From NCBI GenBank assembly GCA_964596545.1, contig CAZQUP010000008.1, forward strand, positions 9,331 to 63,168: a DNA stretch of 53,838 bases, written 5' to 3'. Every line of letters begins with the position of its first letter. The first letter of the stretch is position 1. Below the pieces are notes generated by a model, which did no database searches, was not told the origin of the DNA, and saw only the letters and a list, made by a program, of their open reading frames with translations. Shown here in pieces: positions 1,849 to 49,845 of the stretch. A program made the translations under genes and the position numbers. The stretch comes from an uncultured Desulfatibacillum sp. (GTDB lineage: Bacteria; Desulfobacterota; Desulfobacteria; Desulfobacterales; SpSt-501).

Positions 1849-2859
1849 TCATTTCTCGTTAACAGTTTTCCGCATCTCTTCGATCAGTTCAGGAGGGACT
1901 GCATAGGCAAAAGATGGCGCCACGTCTTCGGTGGCCTTGATCCACCGGGCACGTTCTTCTGACGACAATTCGATGACTTCTCCTCCTGTTTCTTTGATTT
2001 TTTGGATGATCATCGATTCGTTACTTCTGATTTTATTGCGCTCAAATTTTTGCATGACGGCGAAAGATTCATTAATCCACGTTCGCTCTTGCGGCTCGAG
2101 TTTCTCCCAGAAAGGCTTGGAAACTAAAACCAGATGACCGCTGTAAAAACTACGAGTCAGCGTAACATACTTTGTTATTTCTGGAAATTTGTTGAACCAT
2201 GCCAAATTCAAATCAATATCTATGGCATCCACCGTCTTTTGCTGCAAAGCGGTATAAACTTCACCCCAAGCGACCGGTGTTGGATTCATTCCAAGGGCTT
2301 TCAGAATCGCAATATGAGCTTTCGAATGGGTTGCGCGAATTTTAAGACCTTTAGCGTCTTCCAGCTTACGAATTGGGCGGCTAGAAAAAACCTGTCGAAA
2401 TCCGATATCGATGTAGCCCAATCCCAAAATCCCGTTTTTTTCAAGTGCGCTTGCCAGTTTCTTTCCGATAGGACCATCGGTAATCCGATCAGCAGCCTCG
2501 TAGCTTGGGATGATAAAAGGCATATCCAGGAACATCAATTGCGGGTTAAATACGGAAAAATTGTTGCAGGCATCCGAACCCATCTGCAAAACACCCATCT
2601 GAAGGCCCTGAACAACCGCATCAAAATTCCCGTATTTCGAGCTGTCATAAATATCTACTCGAAATACACCCCCCGATCGCTTCTCAAGATCAGCTTTAAA
2701 CAGCTCATAGCCTTCCCCCATCGGATGCTGAGGAACATTGGGATGGGCAAGTTTAATTACGATTTCTTTCGCCGCTACCGGCGAGTTCCATAGGCCCATC
2801 CCAAACAGGATGGCCAAAGAGATGAGGATGTGAATGATTTTCGGGCCCCGCTTTTTCAT
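1849..2859 (-). CDS. dctP: TRAP transporter substrate-binding protein
   Basis: Signal peptide, KGLKIR and WGEVYTALQQKTVDA motifs; AAGGAG RBS before ATG at 2859. Confidence 0.92.
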   Translation of the reverse strand: MKKRGPKIIHILISLAILFGMGLWNSPVAAKEIVIKLAHPNVPQHPMGEGYELFKADLEKRSGGVFRVDIYDSSKYGNFDAVVQGLQMGVLQMGSDACNNFSVFNPQLMFLDMPFIIPSYEAADRITDGPIGKKLASALEKNGILGLGYIDIGFRQVFSSRPIRKLEDAKGLKIRATHSKAHIAILKALGMNPTPVAWGEVYTALQQKTVDAIDIDLNLAWFNKFPEITKYVTLTRSFYSGHLVLVSKPFWEKLEPQERTWINESFAVMQKFERNKIRSNESMIIQKIKETGGEVIELSSEERARWIKATEDVAPSFAYAVPPELIEEMRKTVNEK

Positions 2860-5137: not shown

Positions 5138-5328
5138 TTTAATGTTCCGTGCCGGCGACAAAGGAAAAGAGGCGACGTTCGAAACTGCGGTTTGCGCCTG
5201 ATGCGGCGGCGTCTTCTTTGACAGTGAACCGTGAGCGTGTTATGCAGCGGCCCTTTTCGTGGCCGGCGCTTGAAAAGATGCGCACCGGGAAAGTTGGCCG
5301 GAATCTCCGGAATTTAAGGATCGCTTCG

Positions 5329-6999
5329 ATGAAACCGGCTCGATATTCGCTCTCCCTTCTACGCGGAGATCTCTTCGGAGGTCTCACCGCAGGGGTCGTC
5401 GCACTGCCGCTTGCGCTCGCCTTCGGCGCAGCGAGCGGCGCCGGGCCGATCGCCGGCCTTTACGGCGCGATCGGCCTCGGCTTCTTCGCCGCCCTGTTGG
5501 GCGGTACCCCCTGTCAGGTTTCCGGCCCGACCGGCCCCATGACCGTAGTCTTCGCCGCCTCCGTGGCCGCCTTTCCCGGTGATCTCGCCATGGTGTTCTC
5601 GGTCGTGATGCTCGCCGGGGCGCTGCAGATCGTCTTCGGCGGAATCCGGATCGGCGGTTTCGTACGCTACATTCCCTACCCGGTGATTTCGGGGTTCATG
5701 AGCGGAATCGGGGTGATCATTCTCCTGCTGCAGATCCATCCTCTCCTCGGCCTGGAAAGTGTGGCCTCCCCCTTGCTTGCGCTCATCAGCCTGCCCCGGG
5801 CCGTTGCCGGGGTGCAACTCGAAAGCCTGCTCCTCGGGGGGGTCACGCTGCTGATCGTGTTTCTCACACCCGCGCGCATCACGCGGGTCGTCCCTTCGCC
5901 GCTCATCGCGCTTCTCATCGTCAGCCTGCTCGCGGCGGGTCTCGCCCTTCCCGTGAAAACCATCGGCGAGATCCCCGCCGGGCTGCCGGAAATCCGGCTT
6001 CCGGCGCTGTCGGCGGAGCACCTGCCCCGGATCCTCGCCATGGCGATCGCGCTCGCGGCCCTGGGGAGCATCGACACCCTGCTTACCTCGCTTGTGGCCG
6101 ACTCGATGACACGCGAACGCCACGACTCCAACCGCGAACTCATCGGCCAGGGGATCGGCAACTTGACCGCCGGCCTGCTCGGCGGACTCCCCGGAGCGGG
6201 GGCAACCATGCGCACCGTGGTCAACATCAAGGCCGGCGGCCGGACCCGCGTCTCCGGGATGACCCACGCGCTGTTCCTGCTCGCCGTCCTGCTGGGACTC
6301 GGCAAAGCGACGGCCCACATTCCCATGGCGGCTCTCGCCGGAATTTTGATCAAGGTCGGCGTCGACATTCTCGACTACCGCATGCTCAAGCTCCTGAAAC
6401 GAGCCCCCCGGCCGGATCTCGTGGTCATGGCGGTCGTGTTCGCCGTCACGGTGTTTGTCGACCTGATCGTCGCCGTCACCCTCGGCATCGCGCTCGCCGC
6501 CCTGATGCTCACCTGGCAGATGGCCCGGCAGACCCAGGTCAACGTGTTCGAGGTGGCTCCGGCCGACTGGGAACGCAACCTGGGCAAGCAACTTCAGGAG
6601 GAGAGCGATTACGGGATCCGCGTGATCGCCGTCCGCGGCGCCTTTTTCTTCGGAATGATCGCCCAGATGCAGGACAAGATCAACCGGCTCCTCGGGGCGC
6701 AGGTCGTCATCATCAACTGCTATCATGTCCCCTTCATGGACACCTCCGCCGCATTCGCCCTGGTCGAGATGGTGGAAAAGCTGAAAGCTGAGGGAATCCG
6801 CCCCATCCTCGTGGTGAACGAGGGGGTCGGGCTGGACCGCATCCTCAAAGACCTGAACTGCGCCGGGGTCTTCGGCGAAGAGGGCATCCAGACCGACTAC
6901 CGCCGGGCCGTGGAACTCGCCCGCCGGCACTTGAAGACCGGTCCCGCCGGCGATCTGCCGCCCGATTCACGGCTGCCCGGCTCACCTCAAACGGAGTAG
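5329..6999 (+). CDS. SulP/SLC26 family anion transporter with C-terminal STAS domain (BicA-like)
   Basis: GDLFGGLTAGVVALPLALAFG, SGPTGPM, NRELIGQGIGN, GAGATMRT; STAS-like FMDTSA. Start trimmed to MKPARY. Confidence 0.92.
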   Translation: MKPARYSLSLLRGDLFGGLTAGVVALPLALAFGAASGAGPIAGLYGAIGLGFFAALLGGTPCQVSGPTGPMTVVFAASVAAFPGDLAMVFSVVMLAGALQIVFGGIRIGGFVRYIPYPVISGFMSGIGVIILLLQIHPLLGLESVASPLLALISLPRAVAGVQLESLLLGGVTLLIVFLTPARITRVVPSPLIALLIVSLLAAGLALPVKTIGEIPAGLPEIRLPALSAEHLPRILAMAIALAALGSIDTLLTSLVADSMTRERHDSNRELIGQGIGNLTAGLLGGLPGAGATMRTVVNIKAGGRTRVSGMTHALFLLAVLLGLGKATAHIPMAALAGILIKVGVDILDYRMLKLLKRAPRPDLVVMAVVFAVTVFVDLIVAVTLGIALAALMLTWQMARQTQVNVFEVAPADWERNLGKQLQEESDYGIRVIAVRGAFFFGMIAQMQDKINRLLGAQVVIINCYHVPFMDTSAAFALVEMVEKLKAEGIRPILVVNEGVGLDRILKDLNCAGVFGEEGIQTDYRRAVELARRHLKTGPAGDLPPDSRLPGSPQTE

Positions 7000-9740: not shown

Positions 9741-10412
9741 TCAGACGGCGGGCTGCCGCCGAAAGACAAGCGGCTTCCGCAGCAGATAGGCGATCGGCAC
9801 ACTCCAGATGTGCACCAGACGGCAGAACGGGGAATAGGCAAGCAGGGTGAAGGCGGCGAGCACGTGCAGCCGGTAGCGCAGCGGGATCTCCGCCATGAGG
9901 GAAGGATCGGGTTGGAAAACAAGAAGGCTCCGGATCCAAGGGGCGATCGTGTGCAGCACGTCGAAGCCGCCGACAAAGACGCTGTAGGTGCCGATCCCCG
10001 TGACCAGGGCCAGCCCGAGCAGGGTCACGAAATCGCTCGGGCGGCTCATGCGCCGAACCCGCGGGATGAACGTCCGGCGAGCCAGCAAAAACAATGTGCC
10101 GAGGAAAGCGGCGCTTCCGACCACGCGGCCGACGGCATGGGCGATCGCCGTGTGGGCGGCGCTGTCAATCCCTACGGCATCGTAGAGGCTCTGAGGGACG
10201 AGCAGGCCTACGGCGTGACCGGCGAGGGTTCCGAGCATCCCGAAATGGAAAAGAATCGTCCCGGGAAAGAGCCAGCGCTTCTCGAGCAGCTCGCTCGAAT
10301 GCGCGTTCCAGCCGTAGCGGTCGGTGACATAGCGGAAAGCGTGACCGAGGACGAACACGGCGAGGCAGAGGTAAGGATAGGCGACGAAGAGCGCCGTTTC
10401 GGTCGCATTCAT
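9741..10412 (-). CDS. narI: Respiratory nitrate reductase gamma subunit (cytochrome b)
   Basis: SSELLE; four heme-b histidines with spacing H-x9-H (FHFGMLGTLAGH) and H-x17-H (LHV...RLVHIW). Confidence 0.95.
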   Translation of the reverse strand: MNATETALFVAYPYLCLAVFVLGHAFRYVTDRYGWNAHSSELLEKRWLFPGTILFHFGMLGTLAGHAVGLLVPQSLYDAVGIDSAAHTAIAHAVGRVVGSAAFLGTLFLLARRTFIPRVRRMSRPSDFVTLLGLALVTGIGTYSVFVGGFDVLHTIAPWIRSLLVFQPDPSLMAEIPLRYRLHVLAAFTLLAYSPFCRLVHIWSVPIAYLLRKPLVFRRQPAV

Positions 10413-10963
10413 GGCGTTTTCCTTTCCCGGCTTGCCTTCCCCCCGGCCGGCGCAGGAGATGTCGGGAACACCTCGTGCAGAATCTCCAGGGGCACGGCAT
10501 AGGGAGAGCCCCGCTTGCGCAAGGCGGCCTGCAAGTCGGCGACGGCGCCGCCGAGAGCGACGATCTCGCGGCTTGACGCAGCCTCCGGGACGAGCGACAG
10601 AAACTCGAGCAGCAGCGGCAAAAAATCGGGGAGCTCACCGCACGCCGGCTCCCAACCGCAGCTGCGGTAAAGGGCGAGCAGAGCGCAGAGGGCCAGACCG
10701 CGTTCCTCTCCACGCCGACTCCCGTGGGCGGTCAGATTCAGACAACAGGAGGGGGAAAGATCAAAGGTTGCGGTGTACCGCTCCTGCCGCACGAGAAGCG
10801 GCTCCTCGGCCAGTCCCCGCACGAATTCGGACAGGCGTCGGCGTACCGACTCCTCGCCGATCGCCGCAACAGCCTCCCCCAGCGCGGCCTGCGTTTCCGG
10901 CTCGGGGTAGCTCAAGCAGGCGGAGAGGACTCGGAAAATCCACCCTGGCGCATTCGGGTTCAT
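10409..10963 (-). CDS. narJ: Nitrate reductase molybdenum cofactor assembly chaperone
   Basis: LSYP, QERYTATFDL, ERGLAL, ELPDFLPLLLEF. ATG at 10963 overlaps the narH stop; the upstream extension in the ORF track is spurious. Confidence 0.92.
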   Translation of the reverse strand: MNPNAPGWIFRVLSACLSYPEPETQAALGEAVAAIGEESVRRRLSEFVRGLAEEPLLVRQERYTATFDLSPSCCLNLTAHGSRRGEERGLALCALLALYRSCGWEPACGELPDFLPLLLEFLSLVPEAASSREIVALGGAVADLQAALRKRGSPYAVPLEILHEVFPTSPAPAGGKASRERKTP

Positions 10964-12372
10964 GGGAACCCCGCACTTCCCTGTGCCCGAGCCGCCCGGC
11001 GCTCCGGGCCGGGCGGACGCGGGGGAATCACGAAACGCTCCTCCAGAGGAGCGAGAGCCAGCAGGCGGTAGATCGCCCGCAGCCTCTGCGGATCCAGCCC
11101 GGCGCGGGCAAGGCGTCCGCCGTCCAAGGTCTCCCCCAACCGTTCCGCGCGCATGAACGCCCGCAGCAGGATCATCCGTTCCAGGACCTCGCGCACCGGC
11201 TCCTCGTCGCCCGCCGCCAGGAGATTGGCGAGATAGCGCAAAGGAATCCTCATCCCTTCCGGATCCTCCGCGGCCCCCCCGTCGTCGAGGCTTCGTCCGG
11301 GGCTGAGGGGCGGGATGTACCACAACATCGGCAGGGTGCGATATTCGGGATGTAGGGGCAGGGCCAGCCGCCATTTCCGGATCAGCCGATCCACGGGCGA
11401 ACGGCGCGCGGCTTCCAACCACGGCGCGGGCAGGCCCTGGCGGACCGCTTGGGCGGCGACCCGGGGATCCTCCGGATCAAGCAAGAGGTCGCGTTGTGCA
11501 CCGAGAAGACTCCGCGGGTCTTCGACTGCGGCGGCCTCGCGGATGCGCTCGGCGTCATAGAGCAGCACACCCACGTAGCGGATTCTCCCCACGCAACTGT
11601 GCGCACAGAGGGGAGGCTGCCCGGTTTCGACCCGGGGATAACAGAAAAGGCATTTCTCGGCCCGCCCCGCATCCCAGTTGAAGTACGTCTTCTTGTAAGG
11701 GCACCCCGAGACACAGAACCGCCATCCGCGGCAGCGCTCCGCATCCACGAGGACGATGCCGTCTTCCTCCCGCTTGTAGAGGGCGCCGGAGGGGCAGGAG
11801 GCGACACAGGCCGGGTTAAGGCAGTGCTCACAGAGCCGGGGCAGATAAAAAAGAAAGACCTTGCGGAAGTGAAGGAAGGCCGCCGCATCGAGTCCTGCGA
11901 AATTCACGTCCTCCTTGCCCGTCTCGTGTACGCCGGCAAGATCGTCCTCCCAGTTCGGTCCCCAGCGGATGTCCATGGCCGCCCCGTCGAGCAGCGAGCG
12001 GGGACGCAGGGCGGGCTGATGCCGGCCCGCTGGGGAGCAGATCAGGGTTTCGTAATCGTAGCTCCAGGGTTCGTAATAGTCGTCGATCCCGGGAAGATGG
12101 GGATTGTGGAAGATGCCAACCAGCCGCGCGAGCTTGGCCCCGGACCGCAGCCCGAGTCCCCATTCCCGCCGGACCCACCCTCCCCGGCCGATTTCCTGGT
12201 TTTCCCAACGCTTGGGGTAGCCGATGCCGGGCTTGGTCTCCACGTTGTTGAACCACATGTATTCCGAGCCCCGGCGCTGGGTCCAGACGTTCTTGCACGG
12301 CAGGCTGCAGGTATGGCATCCTAAGCATTTATCGAGATTCAGCACCATCGCCAACTGCGCCCTAATCCTCAT
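10960..12372 (-). CDS. narH: Respiratory nitrate reductase beta subunit
   Basis: MVLNLDKCLGCHTCS..CKNVW, CEHCLNPACVASCPSG, CRGWRFCVSGCPY, CLFCYPR. Confidence 0.97.
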   Translation of the reverse strand: MRIRAQLAMVLNLDKCLGCHTCSLPCKNVWTQRRGSEYMWFNNVETKPGIGYPKRWENQEIGRGGWVRREWGLGLRSGAKLARLVGIFHNPHLPGIDDYYEPWSYDYETLICSPAGRHQPALRPRSLLDGAAMDIRWGPNWEDDLAGVHETGKEDVNFAGLDAAAFLHFRKVFLFYLPRLCEHCLNPACVASCPSGALYKREEDGIVLVDAERCRGWRFCVSGCPYKKTYFNWDAGRAEKCLFCYPRVETGQPPLCAHSCVGRIRYVGVLLYDAERIREAAAVEDPRSLLGAQRDLLLDPEDPRVAAQAVRQGLPAPWLEAARRSPVDRLIRKWRLALPLHPEYRTLPMLWYIPPLSPGRSLDDGGAAEDPEGMRIPLRYLANLLAAGDEEPVREVLERMILLRAFMRAERLGETLDGGRLARAGLDPQRLRAIYRLLALAPLEERFVIPPRPPGPERRAARAQGSAGFP

Positions 12373-15300
12373 CCCAGCTCACCTCCTCCGCCTTGCGCAC
12401 GAGGATCCACTCGTCGCGCTGCGAACCGACCGGCCCGTAATAGTTGAACCCGTAGCTCATCTGGGCGTAACCCCCGATCATGTGGGTCGGCTTGACGACA
12501 ATGCGGGTGACGCTGTTGTGGGTGCCGCCGCGACGGCCGGAAAGGGGCGCAAGCGGGGTATGGATGAGACGTTCCTGCGCATGGTACATGAACGCCTTGC
12601 CCCGGGGAATGCGGGGGCTGACGACCGCCCGCGCCATCACCACCCCGTTCACGTTGAAGCACTCGAGCCAGTCCGCATCGCGCACCCCCAAGGCGGATGC
12701 GTCCTCGTCGTTGATCCAGATCGCCTCCCCGCCGCGGAACAGGGTCAGCATGGGAAGGGTGTCCGCATAGGTGCTGTGAATGGACCACTTGGAGTGCGGC
12801 GTCAGGTAATTGAGCAGGAGCTCCCGGCGCTCCCGGCGATCCAGCCGGATCGAGCCCAACGCCGCCGCATCCAGGGCGGGTCGGTAGAGGGGCAGTCCCT
12901 CGCCGAAGGCCAGGATCCAGGGGTGGTCCAGATAGCAGTGAGCGCGACCCGTCAACGTCCGAAAAGGTACCCCGTGTTCGATTTGGATCACAAACGGCGC
13001 GTAGCGTCGCCCCTCGCTTTCAATGCCGCTCCATACGGGGCTGGTGATGATCTTGCGCGGTTGGGCGACGAGATCCTCGAAGCGGAAACTCTCGCCGCGG
13101 CGGGCGGCGCTCAGGTGGGCGAGAGAGAGGCCGGTGCGTTTTTCGAGCGGCGCCCAGGACTTCACGGCGACCGCGCCGTGGGTCTCCGGAGAAAGGGCAA
13201 GGATCGCCTCCGCCACCTGCCGGCCCTCCGCCAGCGACGGCAAACCCCGGGCGATGCCGTCCTCGCCGACGGTGCCCAAGCGCTCCTTGAGAAGCTCGAT
13301 CTCTTCGCGCACCGGCCAGGCGAGCCCTTTCGCTCCGACTCCGGCCTCGGCCGCAAGCGGACCCAGAGCGGTCATCATCCGGAACGTATCGGCCCAGCGG
13401 CGTTCGACCAGGGCGAGCTGCGGCAGGGTTTTGCCGGGAAGCGGTTCGCACTCGCCCCGCCGCCAGTCGCGGACTTCGGGCTGGGCGATCTCGCCGGGGG
13501 TATCGTGAAAGAGCGGGGTCGCCACCAGGTCGCGGCCGGCTTTCAGGTGTACGTCGGCGAGCCGGGAGAAGGCCGCGGCGATGGTCTTGAACTGATCCCA
13601 GTTCGTGCGCGCCTCCCAGGGGGGATCGATCGCCGGCGTGAACGGATGAACGAAGGGATGCATGTCGGTCGTGTTGATGTCATGCATCTCATACCAGCCA
13701 GCCGCCGGGAGGGCGATGTCCGCGTAAAGGGCGCTCGTGGACATGCGGATCTCCAGGGTCACCAGCAGGTCCAGCTTGCCCTCCGGAGCGGGCTCCCGCC
13801 AGAGCACCTCTGTCGGCCGCAGGGGGCTTTCGCGGTTCATCACGGCGTTTTCGGCACCCAACAAATGCTTAAGAAAGTATTCGTGCCCCTTGGAGCTCGC
13901 CCCAAGCAGATTCGCGCGCCAAAGGAAAAGGACACGCGGGAAATTCGCCGGATCATCCGGGTCCTCCACGGCGAAGCGGATTTCCCCCGTGCGCAGCCGC
14001 TCAACGACCCGGGCGATGATCTCCTCATCGCTGCGCGCCCCCTGCGCTTCGGCCTCGCGCACAAGGTCGAGGGGATTGCGGTTGAACTGCGGGTAGAACG
14101 GCAGCCAGCCGAGGCGGACGGCGGTCACGTTGTAGTCGGCCGGATGGCGCGGCAACCCGGAAGGAGCCACCGGGGAGAGCAGGGCATGCGCGTCGAGGGT
14201 GTCGTAGCGGAACTGATCGGTGGCGAAGTACCAGAGGGAGGTTCCGTTCTGCAACCGCGGCGGCCGCCGCCAGTCGAGGGCGAAGGCCAGCTGGGACCAC
14301 CCGGCCTGGGTCCTCACCTTTTCCTGCCCGACATAATGCGCCCAGCCGCCGCCGTTTACACCCTGGCAGCCGCACAAGGTGGTGAGCAGGAGGATGCTGC
14401 GGTAGATCGTGTCGCTGTGAAACCAGTGGTTGGTGCCCGCGCCGAGAAAGATCATCGATTTCCCGCCCGTCCTCGCCGCGTTCTCGGCGAATTCGCGCGC
14501 CACCCGCGCCACCTGCGCGGCCGGAACCCCGGTGATCGCCTCCTGCCACTCGGGCGTGTAGGGCCGTTCGGCGCCCTCCGCCGGATTCCCCGCCACAACC
14601 TTTCCCGTACGCCCGTCGCGGGCGAGTCCCAGATGGGAAGCGAGCAGATCGAAGACGGTGGTGACCGTCAGCTTCCCGGCGGGACCGTGCGCGAATCGAA
14701 CCGGGGTCCTTCCGCGCTGCAGGACGGCTTTTTGCGGAACGCCGAAGAAAGGCGAGAGCACCTCCACCCAGCCTTCGGCCCCTCGGGCGAAGCTGAGCTG
14801 CGGGTCGAGGGGCTCCCCACGGAGGGCATCTTCCGGCTTGAGGTTCCAGCGGCCTTCTTCGGTCCAGCGAAAGCCCAGGCTCCCGTTGGGCACGGCCCAG
14901 CGGTCGGCGGTTGCGTCCCGGACGACCGTTTTCCAGCGCGCCTGGGGAATGTCGATCCCCAGATCGGAGGCCCGCAGGAAACGAGCCGGCACAAAGGCAT
15001 CGCCCCGGGGCTCGAGCAGCACGGCAAAGGGAAGATCGGTGAAGCGTTTGGCATAGGCGATAAATTCGGGGGTTTCCTTTTCGAGGTAGAACTCGCGGAG
15101 AATCACATGCGCCATCGCCAACGCCAGGGCGGCATCCGTCCCGGCCCGTGCGGGAAGCCAGGTGTCGGCGAATTTCACGTACTCGGCGTAATCGGGAGCC
15201 ACGGCGACCACCCGCGCCCCCCGGTAGCGTGCTTCGGTGAAAAAATGAGCATCCGGGGTGCGCGTCATGGGCAGGTTGGTCCCCCAGACGATCATGTAGG

Positions 15301-16063
15301 TCGACTCGTACCAGTCTGCGCTCTCGGGGACGTCGGTCTGTTCGCCCCAGACCTGCGGCGAGGCGGGCGGCAGATCGCAATACCAGTCGTAAAAACTGCA
15401 GAGCACGCCGCCGATCAAGGAAAGGAACCGGGCCCCCGAGGCGTAGCACACCATCGACATCGCCGGAATGGGGGTGAATCCGTAAATGCGGTCCGGGCCG
15501 TGTTTTTGAATCGTGTGCACGAGGGCCGCGGCGATCAGATCGGAAGCCTCCTCCCAGGAGACCCGGACAAAGCCGCCCTTGCCGCGCTCCTGCTGGTAAG
15601 CCCGGCGCTGGGCCGGATCCGAGACGATGCTTTTCCAGGCGGCGACGGGATCCCCCTCCCGGTCAAGCGCCTCGCGCCAGCGCTCGAGGAGAGCGGAGCG
15701 AATCAGGGGATGCTTGAGACGCACGGGGCTGTAGGTGTACCAGGAGCAGCTTGCGCCCCGCGGGCAACCCCGCGGCTCATGATCCGGAAAACCCTCCCCG
15801 CAGCGGGGGTAGTCCGTCCGCTGGACCTCCCAGGCGATGATGCCGTCCTTGACGAAGACATCCCAGGAACAGGAGCCGGTGCAGTTCACCCCGTGAGTGG
15901 AGCGCACCTTCTTGTCATACTGCCAGCGGCGGCGGTAAAGGTCTTCCCATTCCCGCTGCCCGCAGCGCGACTCGGCATGGCCTTGGGAAAAGGTCTCCCG
16001 GCGGCAGGTTCGGCTGAAGGGCCGGAGGAAGCGGAGGCGGGAGAGAAAGCCCGTTTCGTTCAT
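12362..16063 (-). CDS. narG: Respiratory nitrate reductase alpha subunit
   Basis: RSTHGVNCTGSC, EPRGCPRG, SFYDWYCDLPPASPQ.WGEQTDVPESADWY, HYVGQEK. Start trimmed to MNETGF (GGGAGG RBS). Confidence 0.97.
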   Translation of the reverse strand: MNETGFLSRLRFLRPFSRTCRRETFSQGHAESRCGQREWEDLYRRRWQYDKKVRSTHGVNCTGSCSWDVFVKDGIIAWEVQRTDYPRCGEGFPDHEPRGCPRGASCSWYTYSPVRLKHPLIRSALLERWREALDREGDPVAAWKSIVSDPAQRRAYQQERGKGGFVRVSWEEASDLIAAALVHTIQKHGPDRIYGFTPIPAMSMVCYASGARFLSLIGGVLCSFYDWYCDLPPASPQVWGEQTDVPESADWYESTYMIVWGTNLPMTRTPDAHFFTEARYRGARVVAVAPDYAEYVKFADTWLPARAGTDAALALAMAHVILREFYLEKETPEFIAYAKRFTDLPFAVLLEPRGDAFVPARFLRASDLGIDIPQARWKTVVRDATADRWAVPNGSLGFRWTEEGRWNLKPEDALRGEPLDPQLSFARGAEGWVEVLSPFFGVPQKAVLQRGRTPVRFAHGPAGKLTVTTVFDLLASHLGLARDGRTGKVVAGNPAEGAERPYTPEWQEAITGVPAAQVARVAREFAENAARTGGKSMIFLGAGTNHWFHSDTIYRSILLLTTLCGCQGVNGGGWAHYVGQEKVRTQAGWSQLAFALDWRRPPRLQNGTSLWYFATDQFRYDTLDAHALLSPVAPSGLPRHPADYNVTAVRLGWLPFYPQFNRNPLDLVREAEAQGARSDEEIIARVVERLRTGEIRFAVEDPDDPANFPRVLFLWRANLLGASSKGHEYFLKHLLGAENAVMNRESPLRPTEVLWREPAPEGKLDLLVTLEIRMSTSALYADIALPAAGWYEMHDINTTDMHPFVHPFTPAIDPPWEARTNWDQFKTIAAAFSRLADVHLKAGRDLVATPLFHDTPGEIAQPEVRDWRRGECEPLPGKTLPQLALVERRWADTFRMMTALGPLAAEAGVGAKGLAWPVREEIELLKERLGTVGEDGIARGLPSLAEGRQVAEAILALSPETHGAVAVKSWAPLEKRTGLSLAHLSAARRGESFRFEDLVAQPRKIITSPVWSGIESEGRRYAPFVIQIEHGVPFRTLTGRAHCYLDHPWILAFGEGLPLYRPALDAAALGSIRLDRRERRELLLNYLTPHSKWSIHSTYADTLPMLTLFRGGEAIWINDEDASALGVRDADWLECFNVNGVVMARAVVSPRIPRGKAFMYHAQERLIHTPLAPLSGRRGGTHNSVTRIVVKPTHMIGGYAQMSYGFNYYGPVGSQRDEWILVRKAEEVSWDED

Positions 16064-16196
16064 GGCATATGCCTCCCGGGGATCCAGGGAAACGGAAACG
16101 GAGGCCCGCCTTCGGCGGAAGCTCAAGTCTTGCGAAAAGGAGATGTCGGACGGCGAGCGATTTGAGGTTTTGTACTCCGCAGGAGATCGTCTCGCC

Positions 16197-43296: not shown

Positions 43297-43388
43297 ATAT
43301 TAGACGGCGAGAAGGCGAGGTGTCAAGGCAAACCGCCGCGGATCGCCGCCGAGCGCGGAATTGACTTCGGCCGCCCGCAGGTTATCAT
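43297..43388. promoter_or_regulatory. Back-to-back sigma70-like promoters
   Basis: Minus strand: TTGACA(43326-43321)-N18-TAATAT. Plus strand: TTGACT(43361)-N16-TATCAT(43383). Confidence 0.5.
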
Positions 43389-43431: not shown

Positions 43432-44688
43432 ATGCCGGCCGCGGGATCGATCGTGCTCATGGGATCGGGGGAGCTCACCGCCACCATGGTGGAGGTGCAC
43501 AAGGAGAGGCTTTCCCGCCTGGGGCCTCAAGCCAAAGCGGTGTTCCTCGACACGCCGGCCGGCTTCCAGCTGAACGCCGACCAGATCGCCGACCGCGCGC
43601 GGCAGTACTTCCGCCGCCGGGTCGGCTGCGAGCTCACGACCGTCTCCTGGAAGACGCGTGCGCTCCTTTCTTCCCCGCAAGGGGGGCAGGCGCTCGCCGC
43701 GCTGCGCGGGGCCGACTATATCCTGATCGGGCCGGGCAGCCCGACCTATGCCCTGCGCCACTGGCGCGACACCCCCGTTCCCGAAATTCTCGCCCGCCGA
43801 ATCGAGGCCGGCGCCTGCCTCGTCGCGGCGAGCGCGGCGGCCCTCACCGTGGGCCGCTTCACGCTTCCCGTCTACGAGATCTACAAGGTCGGGGAGGATC
43901 CGCGCTGGGAGCCGGGGCTCGATCTTCTTGGCCGCTTCGCACTTCCGCTCGTCGTCGTGCCACACTGGAACAACGCCGAGGGCGGAACCCACGACACGCG
44001 ATTTTGTTTCCTGGGCGAGCCTCGCTTCCGCGTCCTCGAGGCAATGCTCCCGGCTTCGTGCGCCGTGCTGGGCCTGGACGAGCACACGGCCTGCATCCTC
44101 GATCTCGCCGCCGGCGAGGCCCGCGTCCGGGGTACGGGAGGAATCACGCTGCGGCGAAGAGGAAGCGAGCTCCGCCTGGGAAGCGGCGAGCGAATCCCGC
44201 TTACCGTCTTGGGGGAGGATCCCCCCGGCGAACCTCCCCGCTCCCCCTCGCCCCCGCAGCCCCCTGCAGAACGGGAACCCGCGACGGAGGCGTTCTGGTC
44301 CCGCGTTCACGGCCTTGCCGCCTCCTTCCAACGCGGGCAGGACGCAACCGACCCCGCCGCCATGGCGGCGGCGGTGCTTGAGCTCGACGCTTTGCTCTGG
44401 TCCGCCTTCCAGGACATCGAAAACCCCGAGACGCTCGCCCAGGGCCGTGAGCTTCTGCGGGAATGGATCGCCCTTCTCGGGGCCGCCTGCAACGCCTGCC
44501 CCCGCATCCGGCCGGGGGCGATCGCACCGCTGGTGGAGCGGACGCTTCAGTTGCGCGAGGAGATGCGCCGCAACCGCCGGTGGGCCGAAGCCGATCTCCT
44601 GCGGGAGCTGCTCGGCCTTCAAGGCCTCGTGGTCGAAGACACCCCGGCGGGACCGCGGTGGCACCCCGCCGAGGGAGAAGGCCGGTGA
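43432..44688 (+). CDS. Peptidase S51/cyanophycinase-like domain fused to a CysS/YqeB-like C-terminal domain
   Basis: LMGSGE, GPGSP, AASAAA (Ser), VPHW (His), LGLDEHTA (Glu). C-terminus REEMRRNRRWAEADLLRELL..GLVVEDTPAGPRW resembles the cysteinyl-tRNA synthetase tail. Confidence 0.72.
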   Translation: MPAAGSIVLMGSGELTATMVEVHKERLSRLGPQAKAVFLDTPAGFQLNADQIADRARQYFRRRVGCELTTVSWKTRALLSSPQGGQALAALRGADYILIGPGSPTYALRHWRDTPVPEILARRIEAGACLVAASAAALTVGRFTLPVYEIYKVGEDPRWEPGLDLLGRFALPLVVVPHWNNAEGGTHDTRFCFLGEPRFRVLEAMLPASCAVLGLDEHTACILDLAAGEARVRGTGGITLRRRGSELRLGSGERIPLTVLGEDPPGEPPRSPSPPQPPAEREPATEAFWSRVHGLAASFQRGQDATDPAAMAAAVLELDALLWSAFQDIENPETLAQGRELLREWIALLGAACNACPRIRPGAIAPLVERTLQLREEMRRNRRWAEADLLRELLGLQGLVVEDTPAGPRWHPAEGEGR

Positions 44689-45641
44689 TCCCCCACGCCC
44701 GCGCCGAGAGCCTGGAAGGGCTCTCCCGACTTGCCCTCCCCTTCCCCTCTCCGTTTACGCTTCCGGCATGGGTGGAGAGCTGGCGCGAGGCCTTTTCCCC
44801 GAAAGACGATCTCTGGGTGCGCTCCTTTTACGCCGGCAAGGAGCTTCTCGGTGCCGCGGCCCTCCGGATCGAAGGGAGCCGGGGCCTTCTGGCGGGTGAC
44901 CCGGAGCTCTGCGACCACCTCGACCTGCTGCCCGTCCCCGGCCGCGAGCGGCTCTTCGCCCGGGCCGTTCTCGAAACGCTGGCGGCCGAGGGGATCGCGG
45001 GCCTCGATCTCTTCGCGCTGCGGCCCGACGCCGCGGTGCTCACCGCACTCGCCCCTGCGGCCGAAGAGACGGGCCTCGAGGTGGAGATCCGCCAGCGCGG
45101 CCTGCTCTTCGCCCTGGACCTCCCCGCCCGCTGGGAGGACTACCTCGCGCAACTCTCCCCCAAAGAGCGCCACGAGGTTCGCCGCAAGCTCCGGCGCTGG
45201 GAAGAGCGCGGCTTCGCCCCCTTCGAACTGCACGCGGGAAAAGAAGAAGCCGCGGCCGCCGTCGCGATTTTCTTCCGCCTCTTCCGCCGCGGTCGCCCGG
45301 AAAAGGCCGCCTTCCTCACCGAGAGGACGATGACGTTCTTTCGGCTGCTCGCGCACCGGCTGCCGGAGTTCCGGCTGGGGATGGTCCGCGTTGACGGGAC
45401 TCCGGCGGCCGCGGTATTTTGTTTCGATTTCCGGGGGACCCGCTACCTCTACAACAGCGCCTGCGATGCAGCGTTCGCCCCCCTGGGCGCGGGAATGGCG
45501 TGCAAGATCCTGAGCATCCGCGATGCCCTCGCCCGCGGGCTTTGCCGCTACGATTTTCTGAAGGGGGAGGAACCCTACAAGCGCCGGCTGGGCGGAAAGC
45601 CCCTGCCTCTTTTCGGTTGCCGCATCGAACTCGGAGCCTGA
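44685..45641 (+). CDS. GNAT acyltransferase (Acetyltransf_6, CelD/BcsL/Fem-like)
   Basis: LCDHLD, LPARWEDYLAQLS.KERHEVRRK.RR, YDFLKGEEPYKRRLG. GTG start overlaps the upstream stop. Confidence 0.8.
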   Translation: MIPHARAESLEGLSRLALPFPSPFTLPAWVESWREAFSPKDDLWVRSFYAGKELLGAAALRIEGSRGLLAGDPELCDHLDLLPVPGRERLFARAVLETLAAEGIAGLDLFALRPDAAVLTALAPAAEETGLEVEIRQRGLLFALDLPARWEDYLAQLSPKERHEVRRKLRRWEERGFAPFELHAGKEEAAAAVAIFFRLFRRGRPEKAAFLTERTMTFFRLLAHRLPEFRLGMVRVDGTPAAAVFCFDFRGTRYLYNSACDAAFAPLGAGMACKILSIRDALARGLCRYDFLKGEEPYKRRLGGKPLPLFGCRIELGA

Positions 45642-45644
45642 GAA

Positions 45645-46943
45645 ATGAATCCGCCCGCGCCCTCCGCAGCCCTTTCGATCGCGATGATCTCGCTCCACTC
45701 CGGTCCCCTCGGACCCCTCGGGGCGAGCCGTACCGGGGGGTTGAGCGTCTGCCTGCGCGCGCTCGCGCGCGAGTTGGGTCGGGCCGGTCATCGCGTGGAT
45801 CTCTTCGCCCCCCCGCCCGGGGATGCCCACGGGGAGGAGCCGATCCCCCTGGGGCCGAACGTCCGTCTCTTCCCCGTGGCCGCCGGAATTTCCCGCTCCC
45901 CCCACGACCTCCACCGAGGGGCGGAGGGGATCCTGGAAGCCATCGAGCGCCTTCGGGGGCGGGCGGCCGCCCGATACGACCTCGTCCACAGCCACTACTG
46001 GGCCTCGGGACGCACGGCCGAGCTCGCCTGCCGCGCCTGGGGCGTCCCGCATGTCCTGACCTTGCACACGCTCGCCGCCGCCAAACGGCGCTTGCGGGGA
46101 GGCGGGCAGGAGCGGTTCTTCCGCCTTGAGGCCGAGCGCCGTCTCGCCGCCGCCTGCGACGCGCTGATCGTGCCTTCGCCGCAGGAAAAGGAAATCTTGC
46201 TGCGGTTCTGCCCGGCGGCGGCCGACCGCACGGCCGTCGTCCCTTGGGGTGTTGACTTCGAGGGCTTCCGGCCGGTCCCACGGCGGGAGGCGAGATGGCG
46301 GCTCGGCATCCCTCAAGCTTCCGAAGTCGTACTCTACGTAGGAAGAGTCGTCCCGGAAAAAGGCTTGAAACGTCTGTTTTCGGCCCTCGCCCATCTCCGG
46401 GACCGCAAGCGACTTCGCCTTCTCGTCGTGGGCGGCGACGGCGCAGAGGACCCACGGCTGCGCCTGCTCGCCGCTCAAGCCCGGATCCACGGCCTCGAAA
46501 ACCGGGTCACCTTCTGCGGTCGGGCCGAGACGGAAGCCCTTCCCCTCTTTTACAGCGCGGCCGATCTCCTGGCCCTGCCCTCCTCCTACGAGAGCTTCGG
46601 CCTCGTGGTCCTCGAAGCACTCGCCTGCGGCACGCCGGTCGCCGCCACCCCGGTCGGCGCCGCGGAGTTTCTCCTCCGCGACGGGAAACGGGGCCGGCTC
46701 GCCTCCGGCTTCGCCCCCGCCGACCTCGCCCGGGCGATCGCCGATCTTCTCGATACCCACTTGCCCTCGCCGTTCATGGCGGAAGCGCTGCGCCGCTCCA
46801 TTGCAGGTCTCGACTGGAAGCGGACGGCCGCGGGGGTGCTTGCGGTCTACCGGGCGCTGCTCTCCGGCCGAGGGATCAACGCGACTGCCGAGGCCGGGAA
46901 AAGCCTCTGCTGCGGCTGCGGCCTCGGCTGGGGCCACCGCTGA
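45645..46943 (+). CDS. GT4 glycosyltransferase, MshA-like
   Basis: IAMISLHSGPL...GG, YDLVHSHYWASG, HTLAAAK, PSSYESFGLVVLEALACGTPV; these follow MshA signature motifs. Confidence 0.8.
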   Translation: MNPPAPSAALSIAMISLHSGPLGPLGASRTGGLSVCLRALARELGRAGHRVDLFAPPPGDAHGEEPIPLGPNVRLFPVAAGISRSPHDLHRGAEGILEAIERLRGRAAARYDLVHSHYWASGRTAELACRAWGVPHVLTLHTLAAAKRRLRGGGQERFFRLEAERRLAAACDALIVPSPQEKEILLRFCPAAADRTAVVPWGVDFEGFRPVPRREARWRLGIPQASEVVLYVGRVVPEKGLKRLFSALAHLRDRKRLRLLVVGGDGAEDPRLRLLAAQARIHGLENRVTFCGRAETEALPLFYSAADLLALPSSYESFGLVVLEALACGTPVAATPVGAAEFLLRDGKRGRLASGFAPADLARAIADLLDTHLPSPFMAEALRRSIAGLDWKRTAAGVLAVYRALLSGRGINATAEAGKSLCCGCGLGWGHR

Positions 46944-46954
46944 AGGATCTCCCC

Positions 46955-47650
46955 GTGAGCGCCCCCGCCGACGTCCTGGCCATCGCCGCCCACCCGGACG
47001 ACTGCGAGTTCGGAGCCGCCGGCACGATCGCCCGTTGGATCCGCGAGGGGAAATCCGTGGTCTACGTGCTCTGCACGAGCGGCGAGAAGGGAACGAGCGA
47101 CCCGGGGCTTGCGCCCGAGGCCCTGGCCGCGATCCGCGAGGAGGAACAGCGCGCGGCCTGCGCCCTCCTCGGTGTGCGCGAGGCGGTTTTCCTGCGCCTT
47201 CCGGACCAGGGTCTGGAGGACTGCGCCGATTTTCGGCGGCTGCTCGTGCGCCAGATCCGCCGCTATCGCCCCCGCGTCGTTCTCACCTCGGACCCCTACC
47301 GCCGCTACCTCTGGCACCGTGACCACCGCATCGTCGGCCAGGTCGTCCTGGACGCCGTCTTCCCCTGCGCCCGCGACCGGCTGTCCTTCCCGGAGCTCCT
47401 GGCCGAGGGGCTCGCTCCGCACAAGGTGCGCGAGGTCTATTGCTGGGGGGCCGAGGAGATCAACTGCCGGGTCGACATCACGGAGACCTTCGATCTCAAG
47501 ATCGCCGCCCTGCGCTGCCACGGCAGCCAGCTCCGCGATTTCCCCCGCGGCGACCCCGCAGTCTGGCTGCGCGAGCGCTGCCGGGAGATGGCGGCCGGCG
47601 AGTCTTTCGGGTTGGCCGAGGGGTTTCACCGCGTGGAGGCCCCGCCCTGA
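46955..47650 (+). CDS. PIG-L family N-acetylglucosaminyl deacetylase (MshB/BshB-like)
   Basis: AHPDDCEF, TSGEKG, REEEQRAA, HRDH. GTG start at 46955. Confidence 0.88.
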   Translation: MSAPADVLAIAAHPDDCEFGAAGTIARWIREGKSVVYVLCTSGEKGTSDPGLAPEALAAIREEEQRAACALLGVREAVFLRLPDQGLEDCADFRRLLVRQIRRYRPRVVLTSDPYRRYLWHRDHRIVGQVVLDAVFPCARDRLSFPELLAEGLAPHKVREVYCWGAEEINCRVDITETFDLKIAALRCHGSQLRDFPRGDPAVWLRERCREMAAGESFGLAEGFHRVEAPP

Positions 47651-47674
47651 GGCCCTTGCCGCGCTCGTCGGGGA

Positions 47675-48322
47675 TCAGGGTCGCTCTCCGAGAAAGGCGA
47701 TCTGCGAAACCCGCGGCGGACCGACTGCCGGAAGGATCAGGCGCACGACCGATCCGGTCGCAGGGTAGCCGCCCGCGCCGGGGAGACGAAGGCGGGTCTT
47801 GTTTTGCGGGCGAAGCTCCTCCCCCATCGCCCAGAGCAGGGTGAAAACGATCACATCCCCGTGGGTGACGGCGGCCACCGCTCCTCCTTCGTGCCGCCGC
47901 CGCAGGCGCCCGAGGAAACGCACCATGCGCCGCACGATATCCTGCGGCTGTTCGTAAGGCGGGCCCTCGCCGGTATAAAAATCGTCGCGGCGCGCGCCGA
48001 GGATCTCCAGCGGCTCGCCCTCGAAACGCGTGTAGACCTCATCGATCAGGCGCGAGGTGCGCACGGCAAGGCCCGCCTGCAGAGCGGCGATCGCCTGCGC
48101 CGTCTGCCGCGCCCTCAGACGCGGGCTCGCGTAGAGGGCCCGCAGAGGGATCGGGGCCAGCAGCCGCGCCGCCCGGAGCGCCTCCTCCCGGCCGCGGGCG
48201 CTCAAAGAAAATCGCGGCAACCGTCCGTAGAGGATACGTCCCGGATTGTGCACATGCCCGTGGCGCACAAGAAAGACGGTGGTGCCTGCCGCCGGCCGGC
48301 GGCCGAATCCTTCGCCGCTCAT
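47675..48322 (-). CDS. Histidine phosphatase family protein
   Basis: LVRHG, SPRLRARQTA, VTHGD. Confidence 0.88.
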   Translation of the reverse strand: MSGEGFGRRPAAGTTVFLVRHGHVHNPGRILYGRLPRFSLSARGREEALRAARLLAPIPLRALYASPRLRARQTAQAIAALQAGLAVRTSRLIDEVYTRFEGEPLEILGARRDDFYTGEGPPYEQPQDIVRRMVRFLGRLRRRHEGGAVAAVTHGDVIVFTLLWAMGEELRPQNKTRLRLPGAGGYPATGSVVRLILPAVGPPRVSQIAFLGERP

Positions 48323-49161
48323 GGATCGCTCGCGCCTTCCCGCGGAGGACCTCCCCCCCTCAGGAGGCCTTCCTCCCGGAGGAAACTTTCGACGTCCCGA
48401 AAAAACCGTTCCCCCTCGGGCGGGCAGTCGTTGTGGCCCGCATCGTAGGCAATAAGTCTTGCGCGGCGGGAGACGTTTCGAAGCTTTTCGGCATGGCCGA
48501 ACGGCACGATTTCGTCGTGTCTTCCGTGCAGGAGGAGCACCGGCCCGGGATAGCGCTCGAGCGCGGCGAGGTTGTCGAAGGGGTCGCGGATGAGAAAAGG
48601 CGGGGCGAGATAGCGCGCGGCGAAGGCCTTCACGCTCGTGAAACTGGAGAGCAGGATGAGCCCCGCGGCGGGACGTCGCCGCGTGAGGTCGCAGACCGCC
48701 CCGCCGCCGAGCGAGCGGCCCAGGAAAACGATGCGGGCGCGGTCAACCTCGGGCCGGGAGGCGAGCCGGTCGTAGGCGAGATCGAAGGCCTCGGCGATCC
48801 GTCGCTGCGAGGGGGAGCCCTCCGAGCGACCGTAGCCGGGGTACTCGACGAGCAGAAGCCCAAGGCCGAGCTCCCGGAATCGGCCCAACGTTTCGGGCCA
48901 GAAGTCGATCAACTCGCCGTTTCCGTGGGCGAAAAGGATTGTCGGCGACGGCTCCGGGTTCTCCGGCGGGGGAAGGTACCAGGCCTCGACACGGCCGAAG
49001 GAGGCGGCAAGCCACCAGCGTTCGATTTTCCGATCTTCAAGCGCAGGCTCCGCGGGAGCGGGGATCATCCAGCAGGGGAAGAGCACGTGGCGCTGCAGCA
49101 CAAAGAGAAGGAAGCACCAGCCCAGGTAAAGGAGCAGCAGGATTTTCAGGGCCGAAAGCAT
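48319..49161 (-). CDS. Membrane-anchored alpha/beta hydrolase
   Basis: HGNGE, EYPGYG, GRSLGG, HGRHDE, GHND. Confidence 0.88.
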   Translation of the reverse strand: MLSALKILLLLYLGWCFLLFVLQRHVLFPCWMIPAPAEPALEDRKIERWWLAASFGRVEAWYLPPPENPEPSPTILFAHGNGELIDFWPETLGRFRELGLGLLLVEYPGYGRSEGSPSQRRIAEAFDLAYDRLASRPEVDRARIVFLGRSLGGGAVCDLTRRRPAAGLILLSSFTSVKAFAARYLAPPFLIRDPFDNLAALERYPGPVLLLHGRHDEIVPFGHAEKLRNVSRRARLIAYDAGHNDCPPEGERFFRDVESFLREEGLLRGGGPPREGASDP

Positions 49162-49410: not shown

Positions 49411-49845
49411 ATGGGTTCCCTGCGACGCATCGGGCTCGTCGCCCACGACGAGCGCAAGAAAGACTTGTTGGACTGGGTGCGCTTCAACCGCGAGACCCTC
49501 TCGCGCCATGCGCTCTGGGCGACGGGCACGACGGGGAGGATCCTGACCGAAGCCTGCGATCTCGAGATTCGGCTGCTGAAAAGCGGACCCCTCGGCGGCG
49601 ACCAGCAGCTCGGGGCGATGATCGCCGGCGGCGAGCTCGACATCCTCATCTTCTTTTGGGACCCGATGACCGCCCACCCGCACGACGTGGACGTGAAGGC
49701 CCTCTTGCGCATGGCGGTTCTCTACAACGTCGCGATCGCCTGCAACCGCGCGACCGCCGACTACCTCATCTCGAGCGATCTTTTTCATCGCGACTATCGC
49801 CCGACCGCGGGCGATGCCGAGGCCGCCATGCGCGTGACGGGTTAG
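49411..49845 (+). CDS. mgsA: Methylglyoxal synthase
   Basis: LVAHDERK, ATGTTG, SGPLGGDQQLG, PHDVDVKALLR. Confidence 0.96.
   Translation: MGSLRRIGLVAHDERKKDLLDWVRFNRETLSRHALWATGTTGRILTEACDLEIRLLKSGPLGGDQQLGAMIAGGELDILIFFWDPMTAHPHDVDVKALLRMAVLYNVAIACNRATADYLISSDLFHRDYRPTAGDAEAAMRVTG

Follow-up and report, generated by a model that had tools for sequence, protein, structure and literature searches.

The DNA analysed here (the window) is a stretch of 53,838 nucleotides from an uncultured Desulfatibacillum sp. of the Desulfobacterota (GenBank assembly GCA_964596545.1, contig CAZQUP010000008.1), whose genome assembly has 196 contigs and is 95.6% complete. The region 43432-48322 holds five real genes, here named g1 to g5, which are backed by the codon-position GC pattern and by family matches and are listed with their neighbours in Table 1. 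They code for an S51-type hydrolase domain joined to the anticodon-binding region of cysteinyl-tRNA synthetase (CysRS), a Fem-like protein, an MshA-like glycosyltransferase of family GT4, a PIG-L deacetylase and a histidine phosphatase. An original prediction, made from the letters of the window, had described g1 to g4 as an operon with a convergent phosphatase gene and had interpreted it as a mycothiol-like pathway for a low-molecular-weight thiol. The operon is confirmed, its co-directional genes overlapping or lying at most 11 bp apart. The GTG start codon of g2 lies inside the stop of g1, giving an overlap of 4 bp (an alternative, longer reading frame of g2 from 44463 would overlap g1), g4 also starts with GTG, 11 bp past g3 and with AAGGA ahead of the start, and g5 converges on g4 at 24 bp from its end.

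Table 1 Features of the operon, its surroundings in the window, and truncated CysRS genes of related genomes.
Feature	Position	Strand	Details
Sigma-70-like promoter site TTGACT-16-TATCAT	43361-43388	+	10/12 matches, 44 bp upstream of g1; consensus match only
g1, S51-type hydrolase with CysRS tail	43432-44688	+	418 aa; Peptidase_S51 24.2 bits (cut-off 23.9); CysS_C 21.8 bits (cut-off 23)
g2, Fem-like double-GNAT-type protein	44685-45641	+	Acetyltransf_6 90-91 bits; weak FemAB_like
g3, MshA-like GT4	45645-46943	+	TIGR03449 253 bits; begins 3 bp past g2
g4, PIG-L deacetylase	46955-47650	+	PIG-L 113 bits; BshB1 110.6 bits (cut-off 182.5)
g5, histidine phosphatase (branch 1)	47675-48322	-	His_Phos_1 94 bits; RHG near N-terminus
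g6, alpha/beta hydrolase with hydrophobic N-terminus	48319-49161	-	Hydrolase_4 44.6 bits; upstream of g5, 4 bp overlap
mgsA, methylglyoxal synthase	49411-49845	+	NF003559 199.9 bits (cut-off 84); TIGR00160 165.1 bits (cut-off 146.9)
Truncated CysRS cores of related genomes	L130 (G067:C119), L131 (G028:C163), L132 (G147:C145)		Two in MBL/GT4 clusters beside decayed g2

Residues 1-256 of g1 make up the S51-type domain, which is similar to PepE and cyanophycinase, and are followed by a proline-rich linker and by the CysRS anticodon-binding region (residues ~285-415). For the latter, the Pfam match to CysS_C covers residues 368-407 and is below the cut-off. A profile of the g1 family, built from 31 members, matches the C-termini of solved CysRS structures (8qhp, 1.5e-8; 3tqo, 5e-8; 1li5, 4e-7), its positions 292-415 aligning with CysRS residues ~338-461, i.e. 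with the helical bundle and the C-terminal domain, about 120 amino acids in all. Within this region R379, W384, D388 and R391 of g1, invariant in the 31 sequences, correspond to Arg427, Trp432, Asp436 and Arg439 of E. coli CysRS, which interact with the anticodon according to the accessible text of PMC13449415 (2026). The CysRS-like tail, put at 40 residues when it was first noticed, is real and larger than that, as it comprises the whole anticodon-binding region with all four contact residues. For this reason a ligation chemistry of another kind, connected with tRNA-Cys, is a serious reading of the operon.

As for the N-terminal domain of g1, the family profile matches the cyanophycinase-like structure 6nqc (3.6e-5) and also PepE. 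Membership in Peptidase S51 (PF03575) is barely passed, at 24.2 against 23.9 bits, and the Ser-His-Glu triad is kept: in a pairwise alignment S134, H178 and E217 of g1 fall on S120, H157 and E192 of PepE, which we take to be the catalytic triad, and they are invariant in the same 31 sequences. No match to the class I catalytic Rossmann domain (tRNA-synt_1e) was obtained for g1, which is therefore not a synthetase. Compared with CysRS, g1 thus shares the C-terminal ~120 amino acids, including the four anticodon contacts, but lacks the Rossmann domain; compared with S51 enzymes such as PepE and cyanophycinase, it shares the N-terminal domain and the triad, and differs in its RNA-binding tail. 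Considering the match to the CysRS region with its invariant contact residues on one side, and the S51 match with its invariant triad on the other, g1 is very probably a tRNA(Cys)-anticodon-binding protein in which the catalytic domain of the synthetase has been swapped for an active-looking serine hydrolase domain. That it binds tRNA(Cys), for which the window's genome has one gene (anticodon GCA), we consider likely. S51 enzymes are known as hydrolases of N-terminal aminoacyl amides, not as transferases, and to our knowledge none of them carries an RNA-binding domain; a fusion of an S51 domain with a CysRS tail was not described in the literature searched.

The gene order was followed in 80 loci, the best 80 of 448 confirmed g1 relatives in a collection of species genomes. 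All but four are labelled Desulfobacterota or ‘Deltaproteobacteria’, the exceptions being two Nitrospir-labelled loci, one labelled Pseudomonadota and one with an incomplete label. The genes g1, g2 and g3 are colinear in 61 of the 80 loci and g1 to g4 in 49, with the order kept down to ~35–50% identity. Where at least 7 kb are available downstream of g1 (55 loci), all three genes are present in 39 cases and none of them in 5. The five-gene synteny is partial: the phosphatase gene adjoins the others (g5 convergent after g4) in 15 of the 80 loci only, as it also does in the complete genome G021, and distant g1 homologues stand apart from g2-g4. In a representative library the g1 family comprises 462 clusters at 50% identity (E ≤1e-30), most of those listed being full length. 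In 38 of the 80 loci (one of them with a fragment only), g1 and g2 are separated by two further genes, namely a ThuA-like/Gfo-Idh-MocA fusion and a second Gfo/Idh/MocA oxidoreductase (e.g. L029:11302-14032 and L071:11382-14172). For each of the two, IolG (inositol 2-dehydrogenase) is one of the best families, below the cut-off, and they may act on the inositol or sugar moiety by oxidation or epimerisation; neither is present in the genome of the window. Conservation of a transporter along with the cluster does not extend past close relatives in the 80 loci.

A census of the phylum in 301 sampled genomes found g1 in 38 and the g2 profile in 68. The pair of g2 and g3 is the most widely conserved one, often together with g4 and with a gene for a 200-residue protein of the metallo-beta-lactamase (MBL) fold. 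A g2 match is present in 35 of the 38 genomes with g1; in one of these 35, G067, it is a decayed remnant only. Among the neighbours of solo g1 homologues no conserved partner was found. In family f46, the solo homologue is directly followed by a gene of the PNP_UDP_1 phosphorylase superfamily (L092:6036-6773, L094:10430-11227), and a gene for an FMN-reductase/flavodoxin-like protein lies near it in both genomes examined.

The enzymes coded by g3 to g5 correspond to the early steps of mycothiol synthesis. The top NCBIfam family of g3 is MshA (TIGR03449), matched over the full length with 253.3 bits (cut-off 462.5) as against 105 for the next family; its relatives in other families reach 357–363 bits. 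The best solved relative is MshA of C. glutamicum (195 bits; PimA, 60 bits). All eight named MshA site residues are kept in g3, with R234, K239, E316, F318, L320 and E324 in place of R231, K236, E316, F318, L320 and E324 for UDP binding, and G32 and H141 in place of G23 and H133 in the inositol-phosphate site (residue roles from the accessible text of PMC12182360). The match of g3 to BshA is limited to its C-terminal half (75.7 bits, cut-off 273.7). For g4, the MshB model (TIGR03445) gives 53.5 bits (cut-off 224.35) and BshB1 is closer; the motifs AHPDD and HxDH, presumably metal binding, are readable in its translation. The phosphatase g5 is a candidate for the removal of phosphate from N-acetylglucosaminyl (GlcNAc)-inositol phosphate, the ‘MshA2’ step, and at locus L110 a gene of the inositol-monophosphatase family flanks the GT4 gene at the place equivalent to that of g5. 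The counterparts of MshA, MshB and a phosphatase that had been predicted for the cluster are hence found in g3, g4 and g5.

The gene for inositol-phosphate synthesis, ino1, was also sought and is present in the window's genome (G000:C1:42185-43405, PF07994 347 bits over cut-off), where it does not adjoin the operon. In the census, ino1 (PF01658) occurs in 183 of the 301 genomes: in 36 of the 38 with g1, in 62 of the 68 with g2 and in 121 of the remaining 233. A first ino1 census with PF07994 (1e-20), in which 14 of the 38 g1 genomes were positive, was rejected because this model misses short genes of the ‘mycothiol_INO1’ type. Nine genomes of families f59 and f38 have ino1 directly past the GT4 gene, at 1.3–2.3 kb from g2, and one of these adjacent genes was scored as TIGR03450-type (‘mycothiol_INO1’, 414.6 bits, cut-off 638). 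Since g2 and g3 are the widest core of the cluster, with ino1 adjoining them in nine genomes and present in 62 of the 68 with g2, we have good confidence in a glucosaminyl (GlcN)-inositol scaffold, and the cluster very probably works like the mycothiol and bacillithiol pathways up to this compound.

The question is then which residue is added to the scaffold, and by which protein. The original prediction saw g2, as a GNAT protein, as the counterpart of MshD, and g1 as the protein in the slot of the ligase. The first assignment is not supported, as g2 belongs to the Fem-like branch: in 44 aligned relatives Pfam finds Acetyltransf_6 in 44, FemAB_like in 40 (E ≤0.01, best 5.6e-9), FemAB in 3 and LPG_synthase_C, a domain using aminoacyl-tRNA, in 2. 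The relative L115 passes the cut-offs of both FemAB_like (31.1 vs 27 bits) and FemAB (26.5 vs 24 bits). No NCBIfam family, MshD included, was matched by g2 at E ≤0.01, in a search for MshD that covered g2 and not the rest of the genome. Invariant in the family are a basic helix (R162, H163, E164, R167, K168 and R171) and the C-terminal motif YDFLKGxExYK, whose K299 is by its position only a candidate for a catalytic lysine. According to the accessible text of a review (PMC12945691), Fem-like enzymes of the GNAT fold have a tRNA-binding helix and a catalytic lysine, and one of them, Orf11 of the BD-12 pathway, uses Gly-tRNA to aminoacylate an amino sugar. In comparison with the Fem-type transferases (FemX/A/B, MurM, Orf11, PacB, VlmA and DhpH-C), g2 is placed close to them in Pfam (Acetyltransf_6, FemAB_like), its basic helix is conserved and its C-terminal motif contains lysine; it differs in its proposed substrate, a primary-metabolite glucosaminide, and in having no match to solved Fem structures. 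None of the Fem enzymes in that part of the review is reported with a separate anticodon-binding partner. ‘Fem-like’ is used here at the level of the family, since g2 has no solved relative detectable by sequence or profile. Rows of the apolipoprotein E type obtained for g2 (E 0.12 or weaker) are chance matches, and a search of longer proteins gave no case of g2 fused to another domain, which is weak evidence.

Further information on g2 comes from genomes with a truncated CysRS core, similar to MshC and without the anticodon-binding domain (404–417 amino acids), which is present in 3 of the 301 genomes (Table 1), two of which, G067 and G028, carry g1. These proteins span the whole of the MshC model, with 371–377 bits (cut-off 485), and only positions 1-375 of the cysS model, which has 466. 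In both genomes of family f37 the order is a GloB-like MBL gene, the truncated CysRS core, what is left of g2 (interrupted by stops and a frameshift) and an MshA-like GT4 gene (357 bits), and g1 is intact. The simplest reading, which is suggestive only, is that an ATP-dependent ligase of the MshC type displaced g2 in f37. On this reading, g2 would be the cysteine-adding enzyme. The second assignment, of g1 to the ligase slot, is likewise disfavoured by the distribution of the genes, in which several families have g2 and g3 without g1 and the MshC-like core sits in the slot of g2. We infer a tRNA-dependent function of g2 from its family, its context and its displacement by the MshC-like gene; whether it is a tRNA-dependent ligase is finely balanced. 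The persistence of g1 in f37, taken with the families that lack it, shows that it is linked to the pathway and is not simply a helper of g2. In five genomes having g2 and g3 without g1, the g1 profile matches only the tails of their own CysRS. Compensation for g1 by an extra CysRS paralogue, as it seemed in five genomes, was rejected as confounded, two CysRS-like genes being common in many families without the cluster across the 301 genomes. Long open frames next to CysRS in genomes of high GC content did not prove to be evidence of fusions.

The absence of MshC and BshC, on which the pathway had been proposed to differ from the known ones, was upheld in the window's genome within its 95.6% completeness: there is no match to BshC, and the MshC model (TIGR03447, cut-off 485.1) matches only the housekeeping CysRS (203 bits) and a second, full-length CysRS paralogue (112–114 bits). 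This divergent paralogue (G000:C121:5031-6776 (-), locus L087/L002) scores 223 bits with cysS (cut-off 340), carries DALR_2 and CysS_C domains and runs off the contig end. No stop in the frame separates it from the C-terminal portion of a CysM-type cysteine synthase, so that it may be a CysM-CysRS fusion. Neither type of gshA was found in the window's genome, and for gshB only weak ATP-grasp matches to its domain.

Some neighbours of the cluster in related genomes bear on thiol chemistry. A GloB-like MBL-fold gene (hydroxyacylglutathione hydrolase model, 91–102 bits, cut-off 200.8) adjoins it in 15 of the 80 loci and in 9 of 43 further ones, and one MshC-like gene adjoins an OsmC peroxiredoxin. 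In the window, mgsA stands near the operon, and B. subtilis has the operon ypjD-dapB-mgsA-bshB1-bshA-cca-birA (accessible text of PMC5372718). The GloB-like genes and the methylglyoxal synthase would fit a thiol product. The low-molecular-weight thiols protecting anaerobic Desulfobacterota, which lack glutathione, are named as a knowledge gap in the accessible text of PMC9874932, and the cluster may encode this long-missing protective thiol.

Starting from the gene order and its conservation, the domain identities, the conserved residues and the association with ino1 observed above, we propose a scheme in which the substrates, the use of tRNA, the residue and the role of the product are put forward as follows. 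Inositol phosphate would be supplied by the ino1 gene of the genome. From it and UDP-GlcNAc, g3 would form GlcNAc-inositol phosphate, the phosphate would be removed by a phosphatase, probably g5 in this window, and g4 would convert GlcNAc-inositol to GlcN-inositol. The free amine would then be acylated by g2 with cysteine from Cys-tRNA(Cys), in place of an ATP-dependent step of the MshC/BshC type. Meanwhile g1 would bind the GCA anticodon of tRNA(Cys), its Ser-His-Glu centre acting on a cysteinyl ester or a cysteinyl amide; it could capture Cys-tRNA and hand it over or, more speculatively, act as a cysteinyl transferase or amidase that is linked to tRNA(Cys) and tunes the thiol pool. The product would be Cys-GlcN-inositol (desacetyl-mycothiol, ~444 Da) or a close derivative, serving as low-molecular-weight thiol. 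Cysteine is slightly favoured as the residue added, and the explanation as a whole, a mycothiol-like pathway to a Cys-GlcN-inositol thiol by tRNA-dependent ligation, is the best we can offer, held tentatively. Of the original interpretation, it retains the conserved operon, the counterparts of MshA, MshB and the phosphatase, and the CysRS tail, and gives up the MshD role of g2 and the ligase role of g1. The broader claim that many Desulfobacterota make cysteinyl-glucosaminyl-inositol as their major thiol from Cys-tRNA(Cys), with g1 as a new tRNA(Cys)-directed serine acyl-transferase or amidase, is possible and on balance doubtful.

Several observations weigh against this scheme. The FemAB_like score of g2 itself is 22.3–22.9 bits, below the cut-off of 27, and neither sequence nor profile searches gave a relative of g2 with a solved structure, the solved Fem structures included. 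Acetyltransf_6 is a mostly uncharacterised family, and g2 could carry out a coenzyme A-dependent acyl transfer instead. The displacement of g2 amounts to a single evolutionary event in two genomes of one genus, the decay of g2 beside the MshC-like gene could reflect the loss of an MshD-like step, and the third genome with such a gene, G147, keeps both. Families f33, f38 and f59 have g2 and g3 without g1; with g1 intact beside a decayed g2 in f37, it follows that g2 does not need g1 and that g1 does not depend on g2. Remote homologues of g1 (≤47% identity) sit away from g2-g4 among variable, unrelated neighbours. The scores of g3 and g4 are all below the curated cut-offs for MshA, MshB, BshA and BshB. 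The co-occurrence with ino1 is weak evidence, this gene being common in the phylum (61% of the sampled genomes), and two g1 genomes, 85% and 90% complete, have no ino1. The adjacency of mgsA is conserved in 1 of the 80 loci only (L007). Finally, related genomes are not independent, so that the counts given here overstate the independence of the observations.

A product that is not a redox thiol appears unlikely. The cluster would in that case make an N-acylated or N-aminoacylated glucosaminyl-inositol as solute, signal or storage compound, and the tRNA(Cys) domain of g1 would be regulatory or unrelated. Solutes derived from inositol are known, the evidence is best for the GlcN-inositol scaffold, nothing directly identifies the residue moved by g2, and the solo g1 homologues in unrelated contexts, as well as the g2-g3 pairs without g1, agree with such a product. 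It is at odds with the match to g2 in 35 of the 38 g1 genomes and the MshC-like ligase in two, with the replacement of g2 in situ by the homologue of a cysteine-specific ligase (the MshC-like CysRS core), and with the GloB-like, OsmC and mgsA neighbours, which suggest thiol chemistry.

It is distinctly unlikely that g1 is the ligase itself, with cysteine moving from Cys-tRNA(Cys) onto its serine, as an acyl-enzyme, and from there to GlcN-inositol, and with g2 performing an MshD-like N-acylation of the cysteine amine. One protein would then combine the tRNA(Cys) anticodon-binding domain with the invariant Ser-His-Glu triad, and g1 opens the operon, has its translation coupled to that of g2 and persists in f37 despite the decay of g2; moreover, MshD is, like g2, a protein with two GNAT domains. 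Yet f33, f38 and f59, with ino1 adjoining in nine genomes of the latter two, would lack a ligase, and in f37 the MshC-like gene occupies the slot of g2, not that of g1, which stays intact beside a bona fide-looking ligase. The missing MshD match of g2 (NCBIfam, E ≤0.01), its place in the Fem-like branch and the activity of S51 enzymes, which are known as hydrolases and not as transferases, speak against this reading as well.

A membrane glycolipid of the GlcN-phosphatidylinositol type, made by steps like those of glycosylphosphatidylinositol (GPI) synthesis (a PIG-A-like GT4 and PIG-L) followed by acylation through g2, is very improbable. Bacterial ino1 does often feed inositol lipids, the Pfam family of g4 is named for GlcNAc-phosphatidylinositol de-N-acetylase, and a weaker NCBIfam match of g3 is to GlcNAc-phosphatidylglycerol synthase (82.8 bits, cut-off 480). 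PIG-A is also a GT4 enzyme whose model is most like MshA, with substrate-site residues common to both (accessible text of PMC12182360). The 253 bits of g3 with MshA compare, however, with 105 for the next family and, among solved structures, 60 for PimA; the translations of g1-g5, judged by eye, contain no long hydrophobic stretch, the cluster has neither a CDP-alcohol phosphatidyltransferase nor lipid genes, and a glycolipid leaves no place for a tRNA(Cys)-binding protein, a GloB-like hydrolase or an MshC-like ligase. That the genes adjoin each other but have no function in common, or that the cluster degrades a glucosaminide, is hardly credible: although the Gfo/Idh/MocA and ThuA-like genes of 38 loci resemble genes of catabolic sugar or inositol oxidation and S51 and PIG-L enzymes are hydrolases, the start and stop codons overlap or are a few bp apart, the order is kept in 49 of the 80 loci down to ~35–50% identity, the biosynthetic GT4 is, together with g2, the most conserved member, the anabolic ino1 adjoins in nine genomes, and no transporter accompanies the cluster beyond close relatives.

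Compared with known systems, the proposed pathway to Cys-GlcN-inositol resembles mycothiol synthesis in Actinomycetota (Ino1, MshA, MshA2, MshB, MshC and MshD). Both have an MshA-like enzyme with the site residues kept, ino1 (in the genome, and adjoining in some relatives), a PIG-L deacetylase and a phosphatase, here a candidate for the unassigned MshA2 step, and an MshC-like truncated CysRS even occurs in the cluster of some relatives (3 of the 301 genomes). The differences are the host, the lack of MshC in the window's genome, the Fem-like protein in the amide-forming slot, the lack of an MshD-type acetyltransferase in the cluster, the additional S51 hydrolase with its tRNA(Cys) anticodon-binding domain, the MshA and MshB scores below their cut-offs and the greater proximity of g4 to BshB than to MshB. 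With bacillithiol synthesis in Bacillota (BshA, BshB1/2 and BshC) the cluster shares the logic of GT4, PIG-L and cysteine addition, with BshB1 as the best family of g4, and mgsA beside deacetylase and glycosyltransferase genes, as in the ypjD operon of B. subtilis (accessible text of PMC5372718), but it has no BshC, and the acceptor indicated for g3 is inositol phosphate, not malate. The transfer of GlcNAc onto inositol or a cyclitol and the de-N-acetylation by PIG-L recall the first GPI steps (PIG-A, PIG-L) and the formation of the aminoglycoside paromamine (GT4 and a PIG-L-type deacetylase), from which the cluster differs in having no membrane machinery and no lipid, aminotransferase or cyclitol synthase genes, and in its tRNA(Cys)-binding, Fem-like and GloB-like members, which do not fit there. 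Considering the scores below cut-off, the absence of MshC and BshC and the lack of an MshD-type protein among its members, the cluster falls outside the curated mycothiol and bacillithiol families. No system of this kind was described in the literature searched, subscription journals being mostly outside the search. If the product is a thiol, mycothiol-type chemistry would extend beyond Actinomycetota, the never-assigned MshA2 phosphatase step would have a named candidate, aminoacyl-tRNA would gain a role in primary metabolism, and a new architecture of tRNA-binding enzymes would come to light. Under the broader claim above, if true, a redox cofactor would for the first time be seen to be made in a tRNA-dependent way, and g1 would tie the thiol pool to the extent to which tRNA(Cys) is charged.

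In the immediate surroundings of the operon, the gene g6 is of uncertain membership in the system; it occurs near the cluster in 11 of the 80 loci, with 59–80% identity. The methylglyoxal synthase gene lies downstream of g6 and is divergent from g6-g5, and a gene for a TAXI-type TRAP binding protein is located upstream of g1 on the opposite strand. The region has three sigma-70-like sites compared with 0.3 expected from shuffles. Elsewhere in the genome, ARAGORN reports a tRNA of 95 nucleotides with the anticodon ACA, whose variable arm is long and whose D-arm is weak (G000:C28 c[29866,29960]), and three selenocysteine tRNA genes, tRNA-SeC(TCA) (C1:57983-58080, C15 c[38233,38324] and C45 c[5980,6063]). 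These unusual calls are possibly related to tRNAs for selenocysteine or cysteine recoding, and could also be false. At the left end of the window (1-2800), the G+C content is 0.435 in the first 2 kb as against 0.63–0.70 elsewhere, and the open reading frames at 1306-1782 and 2134-2793 have no Pfam match; this end may be foreign or mobile DNA. At 2940-3956 (-) and 5149-6999 (+), a gene for a CuyA-type D-cysteate sulfo-lyase (523 bits, cut-off 450) is accompanied by those for a YheO-like regulator and a SulP-family permease, a group that looks like a module for the utilisation of organosulfonates. They are followed at 9741-16126 (-) by genes for a NarG/NarH/NarI-like molybdopterin oxidoreductase (alpha subunit of 1254 amino acids, beta and gamma), in a genome of the sulfate-reducer type.

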